Of a DNA stretch of 64,000 nucleotides, positions 9,724-34,951 are shown piece by piece. Location of the stretch: assembly GCA_025832235.1 (NCBI GenBank), contig GCA_025832235.1_3649.1; one strand, written 5' to 3'. The notes below the pieces were generated by a model. That model saw only the letters and a list, made by a program, of their open reading frames with translations. It was not told the origin of the DNA and did no database searches. The translations under genes and the position numbers were made by a program. Origin of the DNA: a phage. Each line of letters begins with the position of its first letter. Positions within the stretch are counted from its first letter, which is position 1.

Positions 9724-11220
9724 CACACAATATTAGCTGCCCGGCTAAAGTGCTGGAAGCACCTATAACACATCTTTCAACTAAATTTCCTACCACCACA
9801 ATCACTTACCTCCCATACATGACTGTTTGCTTGTTTAGTGAGCAGTCATGCCTTGACATTCTTGCCTATCCTGATAAAATTAAGTTCTTCTCTTTTCTTT
9901 TACCGAGTAATTCGGGTTTTCTGTTCTCTTCGGTTTGAAGGGGTATGGAGATACACCTGAGTGAACAGGGTGAACAACCGAACCATTGGCTATGGCATTA
10001 GCATGGCGAAGCGGACGGGTGACGAAAGAGGGGCCGGAGGACACCAGTCACTGCCATATGATATATGGGTGATAACCTGAAGAGTCTGAATAAGTGTTTA
10101 AGTACCAGTCAGAGGAAAAGGTGAATGGTAGCCGAAGGGGGAGGGGGGTTTCTTGTATCTTTAATTTGTATATTATGTATACACTTGTAAACCAATTTCA
10201 TCTGAATCTGTTTACCACACAAAGTGGATAGAGACAAATATTACCTATTAAACTTGAATTATTTATAGAAAATACCACAACACCACTTAAGTCTTTGATT
10301 TTACACACAAATCTTACAGATATTCAACCTCCATATTTAACATACCTGTAACATATTCCATACTCTACCTGTCTGATCAATCTACCCAACCACATCCTTC
10401 ATATTTTCCCTGTCTGTACCACCCCTGCCCCGCCGGGAGTCCCGTCATATCTGGCTTTCCAGCAAATATCACACCCACAAATATCATTGCCTGAAGAGGG
10501 TTTCATCCCATAATACATGCCTTACCTGAAGAGCGCTTCATACACCACGTAAATTTTTTAATTGACCTGCAATTTTCCCGTCATGACCCCCTGCCCCGCC
10601 GGAGAGGTTGGCTTTTCCCACACAGACCTGAAGAGTCAGCCAGAAATATCTGAACAGGCCCAATTCTACCACGATTTTGACCTGACCTACAGGAGTGCTG
10701 CCAGGCGGACGAAATGGGAATACTTCTCATTCTTATAACAATTCTCAAATATCAAGGCAGTGAGGCAAATTAATAGGCTAGGCCGTTCACACAGTGGCAC
10801 AACATTTGCAATCTATTTTGTGTGGGGGAATGAGAATACATATCATTGTGAGAACCATTATCATTACGGGCAATTTAACATAATACCCATTATGCGCACC
10901 ACTGGCGATACATACAGGGATTGATAACATGAGTTACTGTTTACGCATATAACAATTATATTTATTACTATTTGTGTGGGATATAGTTAGCAGCCGATAG
11001 ATTAGATATTGACCTGCGGACTTCTGACCGTCTAGACGTCTAAACGCCCACACAGCAAGGGTTATACATACATCGCTGAATGTAAACAGGGCCGCAAAAA
11101 TGCTACCATACCAGTTTGTAAATTTTCAATGCAGCACTTGACAAAGAGGAGAAAAACTTGTCTGACACCTTATACACTTTCGATACAATAACGACTGTTA
11201 TTATTTCATGTTTCACTGTT

Positions 11221-11295
11221 CACGTATAGATTGTTCCCGCATAGACTGTTTACGCCTGGATAGTTTACACCTTGACAGTTTACGCATAGATGATA
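11221..11295. repeat. five tandem 15-bp iteron-like repeats (consensus NNCGCATAGAcTGTT)
   Basis: cacgtatagattgtt / cccgcatagactgtt / tacgcctggatagtt / tacaccttgacagtt / tacgcatagatgata in perfect 15-bp register. Confidence 0.6.
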
Positions 11296-11297
11296 AG

Positions 11298-11544
11298 CCA
11301 TGCCATTCGTTTGCATGAAAACAATTAGCAAGTTAACAATTAACAAGTTAATAATATATGACATAATATAAAAGCAGGGCAACTATTATTAGATCTATAG
11401 TTGCCTTGCTTATTATGTCATGATTAACTGAATATAAGGCAACTATGATCTGATTAATAGATTGCAGACAAACTATCACGGGGGTGATGGTTACTGCTTT
11501 TATATTATGTCGCGACTCCGTCGCGCCATGCCATTCGTTTGCAT
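11298..11544. repeat. 19-bp direct repeat CCATGCCATTCGTTTGCAT (11298-11316 and 11526-11544) bracketing an 18-bp inverted repeat
   Basis: Exact direct repeat; inverted arms GACATAATATAAAAGCAG (11360-11377) and CTGCTTTTATATTATGTC (11494-11511); inner palindrome GGCAACTAT/ATAGTTGCC (11378-11405). Confidence 0.55.
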
Positions 11545-12170
11545 AGTTGCCTTATTGTTACAGGTAAAACAATTACATTGTTAACTATTTCTTATCTTTC
11601 TCTTAGTCATCTAATGATTCCAGTCAGTATAGTTATGTGCAGTAAACATTAGACGACTAAAGATTTCTCTGATTATAGTAACCTATCGTGACAATTTCGA
11701 ACTGTTTACGAAAAATGTTGACACCTGGGCAGGTTTATGTTATGCAGTTTGTACGAATAATTATTTTGTACAGGTATTGACTATTCCGTTATTCTGTGGT
11801 TGGAATAAATACTTTGCAGGCTATAGAATGGTGATCGTACGTGGATTCTGAGATCTGTCGGCTATAGTTACACCCGATTTTTCACGTAGGACACGCTTTT
11901 TGGTTTGTGTAAGTGTATGACTTATAAGGGTTTTTAATTGTTGACAGTATACTGAAGATGTGCATCAGGTTAAATTTTGTGCAATAGCTGCATTACGTGC
12001 AATTTTGGGAGAGAAAACGGGTAAAAATAGCACCGCTACCACACAATGAAAGGTTATGCAATAGCTATTTTACATGTATATTTGTACAGTGTGCGGGATT
12101 GATGGCTCGTCAATTATTCCACTTGTCAGGTAGGGCCGTTTATGGTAGGAAAAGAGCAAACAAAAAGAAA

Positions 12171-12185
12171 GGGGCCTAAGCCCCT
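12171..12185 (-). terminator. rho-independent terminator ending the leftward unit
   Basis: GGGGC-CTAA-GCCCC stem-loop; on the minus strand it is followed by a U-rich tract; just downstream of stop of 12199..12462. Confidence 0.55.
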
Positions 12186-12198
12186 TGATAATGTTGTA

Positions 12199-12462
12199 TT
12201 ATTTGTTGCTCATCCAGTTTTCCCAAGCTGCCTGATAATCTGCCTCACTGCGGCGGATCTCTTCTTGTTCTTCAAGCCGGATCTCTTCTTCCAGGTACCC
12301 AAGGATGTCGGATTTTTTGGTCTGGCGTAACATCCAATCATCTTTTTTACGAGTAAAGATCTTGTACGCTTTCTCGCAAACCTCTTTTTTACTACCTTTT
12401 TGTACTTCAAGAACTTTGTAGGCCATGTACTGAACTAGTTTGAGCTGATCAAGACGTTTCAT
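12199..12462 (-). CDS. hypothetical protein
   Basis: ORF track; SD AAGAGG before ATG. Confidence 0.55.
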   Translation of the reverse strand: MKRLDQLKLVQYMAYKVLEVQKGSKKEVCEKAYKIFTRKKDDWMLRQTKKSDILGYLEEEIRLEEQEEIRRSEADYQAAWENWMSNK

Positions 12463-12494
12463 GATGTTTACCTCTTTATGCGGTTCTGATTAGT

Positions 12495-12508
12495 GGGCCT
12501 TTTGGCCC
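12495..12508 (-). promoter_or_regulatory. 5'-UTR stem-loop (GGGCC-4-GGCCC), member of recurring hairpin family
   Basis: GC stem about 30 nt upstream of start codon. Confidence 0.4.
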
Positions 12509-12522
12509 GTGTCATTATCTTA

Positions 12523-12795
12523 TTACTTATGGCGGCAGAATTCAAGCGTTTTTAATTGATAATCTTCCTCAGCCTGGAGTACGACCGCCTCGATCATTTC
12601 GTTGGCATTGTTAAAGCCATAACCTTTAGCGAAATCATCCGCGCCACCTTCGTGATCATGTTCTGCGTTCATCGCTTCCACAAAATGGAATTCAAGATTA
12701 TTGAGGTAAGGGCTTGATGTTCCGTCCTCTTTTTCGATGAGATTCCAAATAGCATTAAAACGTGATTCGACTTCTTGATTAATCCAGCTTGACAT
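12523..12795 (-). CDS. hypothetical protein
   Basis: ORF track; SD AGAGAGGAAAAC before ATG. Confidence 0.55.
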   Translation of the reverse strand: MSSWINQEVESRFNAIWNLIEKEDGTSSPYLNNLEFHFVEAMNAEHDHEGGADDFAKGYGFNNANEMIEAVVLQAEEDYQLKTLEFCRHK

Positions 12796-12824
12796 GATGT
12801 TTTCCTCTCTTCTGGTTGTTGTGT

Positions 12825-12838
12825 GGGCACTTTTGCCC
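12825..12838 (-). promoter_or_regulatory. 5'-UTR stem-loop (GGGCA-4-TGCCC)
   Basis: Hairpin followed by CA-rich spacer and SD. Confidence 0.4.
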
Positions 12839-12848
12839 CTTCAAGATA

Positions 12849-12877
12849 ATGTTACCCCACCCCCTGGCAGATGTCAA
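12849..12877 (-). promoter_or_regulatory. sigma70-like promoter (TTGACA-N17-TAACAT)
   Basis: TTGACA (plus-strand TGTCAA 12872-12877), 17-nt spacer. Confidence 0.35.
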
Positions 12878-12902
12878 CGGTTTTTATAGTTCTTATATGA
12901 CA

Positions 12903-12945
12903 GGCAGGCCCGGTGATTGTCTCCACCCGTCGCCAGGTGCCTGCC
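12903..12945. repeat. GC-rich element copy C: GGCAGGC...GAGACAATCACCGGG...GCCTGCC (7-bp terminal inverted repeat)
   Basis: Reverse-complement matches copies at 21536-21571 and 21688-21716. Confidence 0.5.
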
Positions 12946-13005
12946 GTGTAATAAGTATAACAAAAAACAGGACCATAGCAAGCCCTGTTTTGTAGTTTAT
13001 AAATA

Positions 13006-31282: not shown

Positions 31283-31558
31283 CAATAGTTCAGGTAGGTC
31301 GTTAAGCTACCCCGCACCATTACGTGCATAGCCATACGTTTTCACGTAGGATCGGACCATCTCATATTCCTATGATAAGCAACCACAGGAATCCTCCCAT
31401 TTCGACCGCACTTGCTGGTCTACTTCCTTTCGGAATGGCCTCTGAGCGTTCGCTCTTTTGAGCGCTTCGTTGCGGATTACCTTGCCATAAGGTTTAGGCT
31501 TCCCGCAGTTAAAGAGGTTATTCGACATAGATTACTCTATGAAGCCACAATGTTATTT
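31283..31558 (-). mobile_element. group I intron (276 nt, ORF-less) in the DNA polymerase gene
   Basis: Splits H|DE of motif C; 5' exon ends in U, intron ends in G; IGS GUGG pairs with exon CCAU; P-like AACUGCGGGAAG (31499-31510), Q-like AAUCCGCA (31471-31478), R-like GCUCAGAGGCCA (31436-31447), S-like GAGAUGGUCC in canonical order; stops in all frames. Confidence 0.7.
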
Positions 31559-34500
31559 ATGGTAATAAATAATACGACGAACACCTTCATCGTACCACCC
31601 ACGCTTCACCATCTGGCGGTGCATGAGTATTCCAACTAAGTCACACAGCGATGCACCACCATTTTGTTGGTATGCATTAAGTAAAGAGTGTTTAGATCTG
31701 GTCCAGATAGCATGACCATCAAAAGAGTAGATAAACTTCTTACCCGTTGCTTCCCAGAATTTCTCCAGATCTTCTTTACGCCCCTTAAGACCAGGGTTGG
31801 CATCCCAGAGTGCATCGATTACCCTTTGTCCCAACTCTGGAGAGATGTCCAGCATATCTGCAACTTTATCTTTTTGTGCCCCATACATAACCCCATACGT
31901 GATAGGTTTACCGTCGTTACGGGAAATCTCCTTGCCTGCTACAGAAGAGTAAGCTTTGGCGTTATTACAGTTACCGCACACTGCCACTTTACCATTCCTT
32001 CTCACAATGATTGCTCCAGAAGGGACGGTAACGCAATAAACCAAAGAACCGCTCACCTCGACAGACTCTTTAGATAGTGTCAGCAACCCTGCTCTCTGTT
32101 TGCTACCAATTGTGATTCTGTGCTGCACGGCACGACCTTTTTTGTGAATCGCCACCGTATTATTCCGTAAACCACACTGAGTAGCCAGCGCAGACACCAC
32201 CTCTACAGATTTCTTCCTGCACTCGGCCTGGGAGTAGTAAGCAACCTTTCCACCTTCGGAAGATACCCACCCGTCCCAGTTAGATAAAGAAGCTATAAAC
32301 AGGTTTTTAGATTCTTTATCAAGGTTCATCAGGTTATAGGTGAAATCCTTATTGTTGTCCAAAAACTCAAATACCCAGGACGGAACGTGGAATTGGAACC
32401 TTCTCGCCAGTAAGCCTCCTTTTGTGGTTTTCCCGCTCTGCTCTACATAACTAAGGCTTAGAGCAGAAAAAGTATCTAAAAGCGTTGCAACTTTTCTTCC
32501 CTTTCCGACCTGAATCCTGCACACGATGCTGCCGTCCTTATTTGTATGCAAGTGCCCATCATCGTGAATAGCAATAAGCAAATTAACCTGGGCAGGAGAT
32601 AAGGTTGTATTCCCATAAAACTCTGCCGCATGGATAAACCTTCTTCCTGAATTAGACCCTTTACCTGCTTTCAGGTCTTTTGCCAAATCTTCAAACAATT
32701 TATTGCTTCTGTGATCCACAGTCAGCATCCTGTGTTGATCTGTAACCATAAAATCCACACTACTGTTGTGGAAATGATACATATCCCCACAATAACTACG
32801 CTTAACGTAATTTAATGGAGTAACAAGGTTCATTGACGAGGTGTTGTGATCGTACTGGAACACTTGTGTTCCCGGATCAAGATCTTCAAACCTCACCCAC
32901 CCTTTCTCCGTGAGAATTTGTGTATCTCCTGAATAACAGTGTGCATCGCCGTTACTTACAACATCGTAATACAGGCCGTTGTCGAACTCAAAGGCACCCC
33001 AAGCCCCGATAAGCTGCTCTAAGTTGGACCCGTCAATACCGATCTCAAAGTATCCTGGAGGAACACCCCACAGACTACGCATCTCTTTACCCATAACCAC
33101 TTTAGGAGATGGTTTAGGCATGTTTGCACAAATACTGTGTTTCTGTCGGGAAGTGTTTGTTAATCCAGAACTTTTAGCAGGAAGCTTATGGTCAATCTTC
33201 AAACGTGGGTGATTAAGAAGACCAGTATCAACCTTATCCTCCTTGATTGGATCAAGGACCGATCTGCGGTTTCGCAATGATAACCACAAGACGATATCTT
33301 TAGCCATCTCTCCGTTCAATTTTTCAAGATTCGGGCATAGGTGTCCAAACGTATCTTTCAGTTGCGGAGAAGTAATAAGTGCCCTAGCTTTTCTACGTAT
33401 TTTCCCGAATACTTCCTTTTTAATCCTTTCGGAGTTAGGAAAGCTTCTGAACTTGTGCACGGTTGTCTGGAACTTAGCATCAGTTTTGTTCCAGAAGTTG
33501 ATAATTAGGTCACAATACTCTGACTCTAAAAGCTCGTCCATATATGCATACACTCGTGCATCAACATCTGCATCAGGTAGAGCTTTCTTCTTGCTGTCTT
33601 TAGTTACATCCTTAGTTCTCCACATTGTCGGAAGCCAACCAGCACTGATCAGGTATCGCTTAATATCGTCCTGATTGCTGATTTTCATAGGTATCTTGCA
33701 GTCAGGCATTCGCTTCTGCTGTAGATCACTTATTGCCTGATCCATTAGCTCTTTAGGTAAAGGTTGTGGTGTGGAGGTGCCCTTGATATAGCCCCTCAAG
33801 AAATCCGCCATCTTATCAGGGTCTTTACAGCCCATCTCTTCACACCATTTTATCCCCATCTTACTGACATCTCCTGTGGAGGTAAATGCTCGCTTAGGAG
33901 GAGCTTTGAATTCTAAAGCACTCATGTCCACAGGGTAGCCAAGCTTGTCTTTTAACCATTTCCAACCATTATTGGAGATTGTCCCATCCTGGTTAAACGG
34001 CTTTTCAGGGAACTTAGGCCGCTGAGACATTGATAACTCTTTTAAAGGAAGTTGTGGTTCAACACGATCAGCGATCTCTTTCATCCACGCATCGCAGCGG
34101 TCACGTAAAGCAATAGCCCCATCTATGTCGAAATACACACCCTGTCGAGCCTGCAGCTCCATCAGGAAATGTTGCAGCATGCCTCGGCGTAATGCATTCT
34201 TCCAGGTAATCTTCTTGAATCCTTTAGGCTTCTCTTTGGCAGGGTCATACATAAAGTTCTGCATGTCAGATTTGCCGTAGAATACACCTTTTGATTCCGC
34301 TACCAACTCTTTCCAGAGCAACTCCTGGATGATAACGTCCTCGAACACACGATCCACATATTTCCACAGCGGAAGATCGCGCCAGTCATCAATTTGAACT
34401 TTCTGGTTACCAAGGGCGTAGCCCCATGCCATAAGGCCGTGAGGACCAACAGGTTGCATTTTCTTAGTAACCGGGTTGAATACAGCGTCCGGACAACCTT

Positions 34501-34951
34501 TTGGTAAAGGGCGATCAGGCCACAAGATTCGGCTCATAGCCAACGTATCAAACAGGTTAACCTGGTGGTCGTTGATAGTCCCCATGCATTTAGGATCACG
34601 GAACATATCAAAATGAATACCGGATAATCTTTCCATTAGCATAAAGTCATAACTGTAGCAGTTATGGCAGTTCAAAGCTGTTGGTGACCAGTCAGAATTG
34701 CCTGTAAGCCAACCTTCCAACTCCGAAAAATCTGCTATGCGAACTTCAAAATCTTTATAAAGAGTTTTCTTTGCCAGAATGAAGTTCTTAGCCTTTTCTA
34801 TATCCTCCTCGGAGTAGTGTGTGCGGTCATTTAGAGGAAGGAACAGCATAAAACGGTTCTTATTCAGCTCTTTAAACAGACCGCAGTGATAATAAAGATC
34901 TGGGTCTTCCAGCAAACCGGATGACTCAAAATCGAAAGACCACATACTCAT
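31559..34951 (-). CDS. DNA polymerase (family A, T7 gene 5-like), exon 1, containing an in-frame intein
   Basis: N-terminal 3'-5' exonuclease motifs (FDFESSG, CHNCYSYD, GPHGLMAWGYALG); motif A IDGSNLEQL; motif B KPITYGVMYGAQK; ends ...RRIIYYH where HDE is expected. Confidence 0.85.
31970..32938 (-). mobile_element. intein (323 aa) with LAGLIDADG-type homing endonuclease domain
   Basis: Block A CYSGDTQILTEKGW, block B LTVDHR, LAGLIDADG-like LLIAIHDDGH and FIASLSNWDGW, C-terminal VYCVTV...VAVCGN followed by +1 Cys; flanking exteins NGDAH|CNNAKAY restore a T7-like NGDIHTKNQIA segment. Confidence 0.75.

Follow-up and report, generated by a model that had tools for sequence, protein, structure and literature searches.

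A variable array of 15-bp direct repeats beside the terminal repeat of rV5-like phages: a cluster of putative protein-binding sites and a candidate origin element

Origins of the RepA_N type, represented by PLE RepA and by the staphylococcal pSK41 and pTZ2162 RepA proteins, contain noncoding direct repeats that serve as initiator binding sites. Initiators of this type are rare in Gram-negative systems, among which PLE RepA was reported to be the first one characterised, and replication of PLE also needs a Dda-like SF1B helicase. The iterons of RepA_N systems take the form of semi-palindromic repeats converging on a poly-A tract (PMC7145576). A different kind of array is found at the left end of T7, where we counted about 13 head-to-tail 7-bp cores of the CCTAAAG type, with a free 6-bp spacer and a 13-bp period, starting from nt 175 (23 core matches versus 3.2 expected). 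This array, SRL, begins 15 bp inward of the 160-bp terminal repetition, three more copies lie within the repetition, and to our knowledge its function has never been established. The type-1 iterons of P4, located at ori and crr and bound by the alpha protein, read A-Y-T-G-T-T-C-A-C-C and are spaced 9-10 bp apart in both orientations. In lambda, the origin is laid out as direct repeats followed by an AT-rich segment and a palindrome, and cosB carries repeated R sites near the terminase cut.

The array described here belongs to these known kinds, iteron arrays and terminal-repeat-proximal arrays. It lies in a 64,000-nucleotide stretch of phage DNA (contig GCA_025832235.1_3649.1), hereafter the window, whose region 10700-12100 has matches in 120 phage records (84-97% identity), all of them from vequintaviruses; judged from its sequence, the source is an rV5-like coliphage (Vequintavirus). 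The Gotham record annotates a repeat_region at 1-459, and alignment places Gotham nt 1 at window position 10704 and nt 459 at 11162. The window is therefore a circularly joined assembly holding one copy of the terminal repeat (DTR, 10704-11162), with its left physical terminus at 10704 (GGCGGACG...) and its inner boundary at 11162 (...AAAACTTGTC/TGACAC; ..CTTGTC/TGACAC, the slash marking the boundary). A 459-bp DTR was determined for LL12 by PhageTerm (PMC6658697), and repeat lengths of 459/458 bp are reported for Gotham, EdH4 and HdK5. In a conservation profile of eight genomes, identity to the relatives is about 0.55 left of 10704, jumps to 0.97 at that position, stays at 0.9-1.0 throughout the DTR and drops at 11163; it amounts to 0.4-0.75 over 11164-11363, with gaps reaching 58%, and is back to 0.8-1.0 over 11364-12183. 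The features of this region are the following.

10704 to 11162, no strand assigned: DTR of 459 bp, present as a single copy in the assembly.
10936 to 10944, plus strand: solitary copy of the core (ACTGTTTAC), inside the DTR.
11163 to 11192, plus strand: GACAY array, with 2-3 units here and up to 9 in relatives.
11202 to 11291, plus strand: array of 15-bp units, with five clear units from 11217 and a degenerate sixth at 11202-11216.
11297 to 11316, plus strand: first copy of a 20-nt direct repeat (GCCATGCCATTCGTTTGCAT).
11318 to 11399, plus strand: AT-rich segment, with AACAATTnnCAAGTT repeats at 11318-11356 whose copy number varies in relatives.
11358 to 11513, no strand assigned: large imperfect palindrome, a module capable of forming a cruciform, kept in relatives except FV3.
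11525 to 11544, plus strand: second copy of the 20-nt direct repeat (GCCATGCCATTCGTTTGCAT).
11701 to 11745, plus strand: second solitary core (ACTGTTTAC, 11701-11709) together with an orphan promoter.

The array thus begins 55 bp inside the DTR boundary, at the unique sequence's left end. We found no match to this island in E. coli genomes. It is matched at 91% by CP057073.1, a record of 137.6 kb that is labelled 'non-mobilizable plasmid' and derives from E. coli cultured from cattle; this is evidently the genome of an rV5-like phage that was assembled along with its host (carrier state or contamination). An anchor search of viral contigs returned only two rV5-like contigs, and an Rfam scan of 10000-13000 gave a single match, at chance level.

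A first-pass annotation had noted five head-to-tail iterons at 11221-11295, and all the letters that it quoted are found there exactly; TRF also detects the array, as two overlapping rows of period 15. The register that best fits the relatives has its unit starts at 11217, 11232, 11247, 11262 and 11277 (array 11217-11291), which gives the units TGTTCACGTATAGAT, TGTTCCCGCATAGAC, TGTTTACGCCTGGAT, AGTTTACACCTTGAC and AGTTTACGCATAGAT. The self-match at lag 15 (44/60, over 60 nt) is the maximum in the whole 64-kb window for all lags from 8 to 30, whereas in 200 shuffles of the window that preserve dinucleotides the value averaged 32.3 and never exceeded 36. Each unit is made of a core, A-Y-W-R-T-T-Y-A-C, and a free spacer of 6-7 bp. 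The units are asymmetric and show no self-complementarity, a poly-A tract is absent, and as a single strand the array remains unfolded (MFE -1.4 kcal/mol, z +1.9).

Absence from close relatives had been named in advance as an argument against the array; we found it in 24 of 25 relatives, in 1 to about 13 units spaced by 15 or 16 bp. There is one unit in CM1 and two in EmilHeitz, LL12, FFH2 and MaxTheCat; the window, isim, FV3, ECP26 and others have 4-6, and rV5, Murica, slur16, I29 and typing phage 4 have 8 to about 13. On its right the array has a fixed anchor, its last core beginning exactly 20 nt ahead of the 20-nt direct repeat in all relatives. On its left, the first unit is separated from the DTR end by 36 to 125 bp, depending on the relative. 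Of the 25, only V18 has a record without the array; its junction shows a poly-A12. FV3 shows a precise deletion between the 20-nt repeats, from which the AT-rich segment and the palindrome are gone. Either of these deletions could be real, or an artefact of assembly or cloning. More generally, the stretch from the DTR end to the palindrome is, in the 25 relatives, a mosaic of three short-repeat arrays of variable copy number: GACAY with a 9-11 bp period, the TGTTTAC-type array, and AACAATT/CAAGTT after the first 20-nt repeat. Whole units are gained and lost in the hypervariable part (11164-11363), and each module of the island is missing from at least one isolate.

What is kept within this variable region is the core. 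Among 72 distinct units, the A and the Y that open the core are each found in 71, both of these near-invariant positions lying outside the pattern used to detect units; TT is conserved at about 95% and AC at about 90%, and W, R and the second Y are likewise among the conserved positions. Four of the spacer positions carry only 0.1-0.4 bit each, and the positions are strongly heterogeneous (chi-square 230, p = 4e-41). Over the 64-kb window, the core is no more frequent than expected (14 matches versus 12.0 ± 3.3). The 1.4-kb noncoding region, the only one enriched, has 6 matches versus 0.26 expected, all six on the plus strand, and about 92 kb of a relative's genome contain no other core cluster. 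Both solitary cores (10936 and 11701) are kept in 21/21 relatives examined, V18 and CM1 included. A conserved 9-bp core next to an information-free spacer constitutes a binding-site signature, and the view that the array is a cluster of protein-binding sites appears well supported by these comparisons. The first-pass annotation had proposed such a protein-binding array, and core/spacer conservation, single orientation and local enrichment all argue for it; as to the binder, the two types it had suggested, a replication initiator and a packaging protein, are both possible.

To its right, the array is followed by a perfect direct repeat, initially given as 19 bp and in fact 20 nt long, and by palindromes that are genuine as first described. 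The two copies of the repeat enclose the AT-rich units together with the palindrome, which is about 150 nt in length; FV3 has a single copy and lacks everything in between. The FV3 state may result from recombination between the repeats, represent an empty insertion site, or be a cloning artefact driven by the palindrome. GC content falls to 18-22% at 11325-11399, the regional minimum, about 30 bp right of the array, in the segment that FV3 lacks. The palindrome comprises a perfect 18-nt inverted repeat (11360-77/11494-511) and a hairpin (11372-86/11397-411), and as single-stranded DNA the interval 11297-11545 has an MFE of -51 kcal/mol (z = -7.8). A hairpin-forming insert of about 33 bp was also observed at two positions of the island in relatives, at about 1000-1035 in rV5 and 935-970 in SYGMH1 (..CCTCGAGACGAAGGCTATGCCTGAG.. 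and ..CCCTTGAGACGAGGGCTATGCTCCCGAG..), which suggests a tiny mobile or recombining element.

Which protein could bind these sites? The replication genes of the window are T7-like: they encode a family A polymerase, a gp4-type primase-helicase, which belongs to the DnaB/T7-gp4 type and not to the D5/alpha type, and a Dda-like helicase. The DNA polymerase ORF (31553-34951, minus strand, 1132 aa) is interrupted by an insertion. Its residues ~664-1000 (about 340 aa) match unrelated PHROG families, consistent with an intein, and in AlexBoehm the polymerase gene is annotated as joined, with an intron and a homing endonuclease inside. The small early ORFs of the window include a homologue of T7 gene 1.1 (Phage_1_1, 2e-11), a Ribosomal_S30AE hibernation factor (1e-12) and a Macro domain protein (3e-6). 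The small genes neighbouring the array were considered as binders and rejected, as they have no Pfam support and the 'FtsK' label of an 87-aa neighbour is unsupported.

Scanning of the second long operon of AlexBoehm, a relative from the BASEL collection, identified a better candidate outside the window, the 116-aa winged-helix protein bas56_0212, whose rV5 counterpart lies at 65311-65658 of NC_011041. In Pfam it matches HTH_36, below the cut-off, and also DUF6945; in PHROGs it falls into 'replication initiation protein' families (8.5e-80 and 5e-6), a label for which we found no curated support in NCBIfam. Many records call it a 'putative transcriptional regulator'. The protein is 95-100% identical across the genus. 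The 119 phage records that contain it break down by taxon just as those of the array-bearing region do, and at E ≤ 1e-3 it was seen in no other phage. Its remote homologues belong to HTH_36/DUF6945, and one of them has two tandem winged helices and a weak similarity to DnaD_N. The closest match, in both sequence and structure, is the iteron-binding N-terminal domain of RepA from the Vibrio satellite PLE (4RO3), followed by the N-terminal domains of pSK41 and pTZ2162 RepA; the fold also resembles regulators of the MarR/ArsR/LexA type. An alignment-based structural model was used for this comparison, and a single-sequence model (pLDDT 43) was set aside. The protein consists of the N-terminal domain only, lacking a C-terminal one, and escapes detection by Pfam RepA_N.

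We tentatively read the array as origin-type iterons for this 116-aa protein, that is, as an origin or an origin-enhancer element, a reading that seems to us quite possible, if short of probable. The protein, a stand-alone homologue of the RepA_N N-terminal domain, would bind the array and the two solitary sites as double-stranded DNA, and once bound it would serve to mark or reshape the noncoding stretch of the left genome end. The adjoining AT-rich segment and palindrome would then be opened, and a T7-like replisome with the gp4-type primase-helicase, the family A polymerase and the Dda-like helicase would be loaded. We infer both the binding of the repeats by the 116-aa protein and the start of replication at this place. 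Several observations are in line with the origin reading. The cis layout, with repeats, AT-rich segment and palindrome in succession, is the classic order of an iteron origin. Iteron origins have at least three direct repeats with a conserved core, of which there are 5-6 here (1 to about 13 in relatives), and an adjoining AT-rich segment, present here with 18-22% GC. A plausible trans factor exists, its distribution matches that of the array, and the origin role is unfilled. As to its setting, the region lies at the cumulative GC-skew maximum, between convergent operons; divergent promoter regions are located near window 48.7 kb (rV5 66.7 kb). The rV5 authors saw the same skew pattern, ascribed it to transcription and labelled the region 'non-coding', without mention of the repeats.

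Other properties fit an origin less well, namely the variable copy number, the apparent dispensability of elements in V18 and FV3, the position between convergent operons, the T7-type replisome, the restriction of the 116-aa protein to an N-terminal domain and the non-palindromic units. A host-type origin dependent on DnaA or IHF was rejected, as 10700-12100 contains 0 DnaA boxes (TTWTNCACA) and 0 IHF consensus sites. Taken together, the array and the 116-aa protein are the best current candidate for the vequintavirus replication origin. A more specific proposal, which we consider unlikely in this full form, is that the array and the RepA_N-like protein reduced to its N-terminal domain make up an unrecognised minimal origin system of a large virulent Gram-negative myovirus. 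The 116-aa binder would nucleate on the variable-number array and recruit the T7-type replisome or the Dda-like helicase, and initiation would be physically linked to that end of the genome from which the concatemer junction is made later on.

Could the array instead be a terminus or packaging element? In that case the small terminase or an accessory factor would attach to it, left-end side of the concatemer junction, and the array would assist in recognition, orientation or processing of the DTR. Repeated sites beside the cut are what small terminases generally recognise (PMC3896407), the array lies within tens of base pairs of the mapped DTR boundary, and conservation breaks exactly at both DTR boundaries. 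T7 SRL has a matching architecture, and here as well one copy of the core lies inside the DTR. However, the array is anchored to the 20-nt repeat and not to the cut site, from which its distance varies without fixed geometry. The array that does abut the cut site is GACAY. The Klebsiella Mydovirus KPP-1 keeps a homologous DTR end motif without such an array, several isolates have only 1-2 copies and V18 has 0, and there is no counterpart array on the outer DTR flank. We therefore regard a role in packaging as unlikely for the 15-bp units. Among the genome parts that we examined, none has an annotated small terminase.

The GACAY array is a candidate better placed than the 15-bp array for terminase binding or end processing. 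It begins exactly at the inner boundary of the DTR and has an isolate-dependent copy number (2-9), with spacings of 9 bp (43 cases), 10 bp (12 cases) and 11 bp (15 cases) that correspond to the helical period. On the opposite strand its units read GTGTC/ATGTC, which presumably resemble T7-type primase recognition sites. The outer flank of the DTR (10640-10703, and relatives) is variable and ends in a conserved ACWGGAGTGCTGCCA, which adjoins the left cut site and occurs twice in several isolates. At the other end, the last ~25 bp of the DTR (11138-11162, CTTGACAAAGAGGAGAAAAACTTGTC) are recognisably conserved in KPP-1 (1505-1530), the rest of the region having diverged; this conserved motif is probably part of the end-cleavage signal. 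Within the DTR, positions 10829-10866 and 11027-11042 hold what we take, by resemblance, to be Fur-box-like (AATGAGAATA...ATTATCATT) and tandem MetJ-box-like (GACCGTCTAGACGTCT) sequences. The DTR and flank of KPP-1 (1410-1470, 1941-2164) contain similar AATGAGAAT and ATGATAAGGATTATCAT elements.

Alternatively, the units may be operators, with the winged-helix protein or another factor acting as a transcriptional regulator and the array providing auxiliary or cooperative sites for the orphan promoter(s). The second solitary core lies 8 nt upstream of a sigma-70-like promoter (TTGACA at 11717, 17-nt spacer, TATGCA at 11740), at about -37 to -46, and both elements are conserved: in 21 relatives the hexamers of the promoter are invariant while its spacer is variable. 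The context of the -35 resembles that of rV5 early promoters (Table S4, PMC3606486). In addition, auxiliary operators tolerate a variable copy number more easily, the 116-aa protein is often annotated as a 'putative transcriptional regulator', and regulators of the MarR/ArsR/LexA type share its fold. However, in sequence and structure its closest relatives are found among initiator domains and not among regulators, the orphan promoter is about 430 bp downstream of the array, and no conserved promoter is found at the array itself. Downstream of the orphan promoter there is no conserved gene: we found no conserved ORF, the only frame having 29 codons, and no convincing one. An operator role is doubtful in our eyes. 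Over 11717-12170, the early-type promoter faces about 400 bp of noncoding DNA that is ~92% conserved and may encode a noncoding or primer RNA. Operator-like near-palindromes are also seen there, TGCAATAGCTGCATTA at ~11980 and ATGCAATAGCTATTTTACAT at ~12056. Two further promoter hypotheses were rejected: the units are not phased sigma-70 promoters, their would-be -10 positions being unconserved across units, and a promoter-like site at 11162-11189 is not conserved in relatives.

The variability of the array raises the question of whether it is a neutral variable-number tandem repeat, arisen through slippage or unequal recombination in an unconstrained island beside the genome end. The hypervariability of 11164-11363, its gains and losses of whole units, the absence of every island module from at least one isolate and the variable copy number of the two other arrays are all what such a process would produce. 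A neutral repeat should nevertheless spread its differences evenly, whereas here the core is kept and the spacer randomised (p = 4e-41). The core is also kept at two solitary sites in all relatives checked, and the array has a uniform orientation, an anchored right end and a persistence in 24/25 isolates. Neutrality is therefore very improbable. As for a coding pentapeptide repeat, for which the period is a multiple of three (15 bp, five codons) and the array is overlapped on the minus strand by an ORF of 58 codons (11206-11382), it can practically be dismissed: 16-bp units are common (25/72 distinct units) and break any reading frame, so that the array cannot be coding, neither copy number nor flanks are constant, the ORF starts with TTG and its translation is of low complexity, and most records annotate no gene here.

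The searchable literature yielded neither a description of this array nor functional or transcriptomic data on the region; GenBank records such as that of isim contain bare 'repeat_region' features only. Three aspects of the array are unusual: its location directly inside the DTR of a virulent myovirus, its highly variable copy number, and its possible pairing with a stand-alone protein resembling the RepA_N N-terminal domain in a Gram-negative phage. No origin of replication has so far been located in rV5-like phages, the skew analysis of the rV5 genome paper having been unsuccessful, and the present analysis puts forward one specific cis element together with one specific candidate for the trans factor. 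These phages form a large group, widely used in biocontrol of E. coli O157 and present in the BASEL collection. If the origin reading is true, a stand-alone N-terminal domain version in a virulent coliphage would extend the RepA_N family. The variable-number array is, in addition, a practical high-resolution typing marker for vequintaviruses, and for phage engineering it designates a region to preserve or deliberately alter.

How does the locus compare with the systems considered at the outset? Scanning viral contigs for GTTTAC cores in threes, 14-16 bp apart, proved unspecific and returned mostly unrelated tandem repeats, and the terminal arrays of three other viral contigs turned out to be unrelated to the 15-bp array. 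In KPP-1, the DTR of which was mapped previously (PMC9862379), the homologous DTR end (CTTGACAAGGAGAGAGAATTGTGT) is kept and no such array is present. The likeness to lambda would lie in the order of array, AT-rich segment and palindrome, which is that of ori-lambda, and in the presence of repeats near a cut site, as in cosB. Unlike in lambda, the array is outside any initiator gene, there is no IHF or DnaA consensus, and the distance to the cut site varies.

With its flanks included, the consensus is nearly identical to that of P4. Aligned with the P4 iteron, the vequintavirus sequence reads A-Y-W-R-T-T-Y-A-C-R, and unit 1 of the window (ACTGTTCAC) is an exact 9-mer match. With the P4 octamer TGTTCACC and its A-Y flank, 9/10 positions are in common; the tenth is C in P4 and never C here, and at the fifth core position T predominates over C. 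The repeats of P4 differ in spacing and in occurring in both orientations, whereas the vequintavirus units are 15-16 bp apart in one orientation. We searched for the origin-binding domain of P4 alpha (PF03288) in 118 window ORFs and 28 AlexBoehm ORFs, a scan that leaves aside about 42 kb of structural genes, and found none; tblastn was negative and hhalign gave a probability of 0.2%. Since no alpha-type domain was found, the resemblance to P4 stays at the DNA level.

The architecture of the locus matches that of T7 SRL. In both cases, head-to-tail cores with a free spacer run in one orientation, beginning a few tens of bp inward of the left terminal repeat, and further copies lie within that repeat. 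The two genomes also have in common a short DTR without permutation and a replisome of the T7 kind. The two arrays have no sequence similarity, and a 7-bp core with a 13-bp period in T7 is opposed here to a 9-bp core with a period of 15-16 bp. T7 also has a right-end array (SRR), whereas the outer DTR flank of vequintaviruses is without one, and the present virus is a myovirus.

With the RepA_N systems, finally, the comparison concerns both partners. The vequintavirus array differs from their origins in that its repeats are neither semi-palindromic nor converging on a poly-A tract, in its distance of about 40 kb from the candidate gene, in its location next to the DTR of a 137-kb virulent myovirus, and in its range of 1 to about 13 copies. 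It shares with them the noncoding direct repeats, and a Dda-like helicase of the kind needed by PLE is encoded in the vequintavirus window as well.
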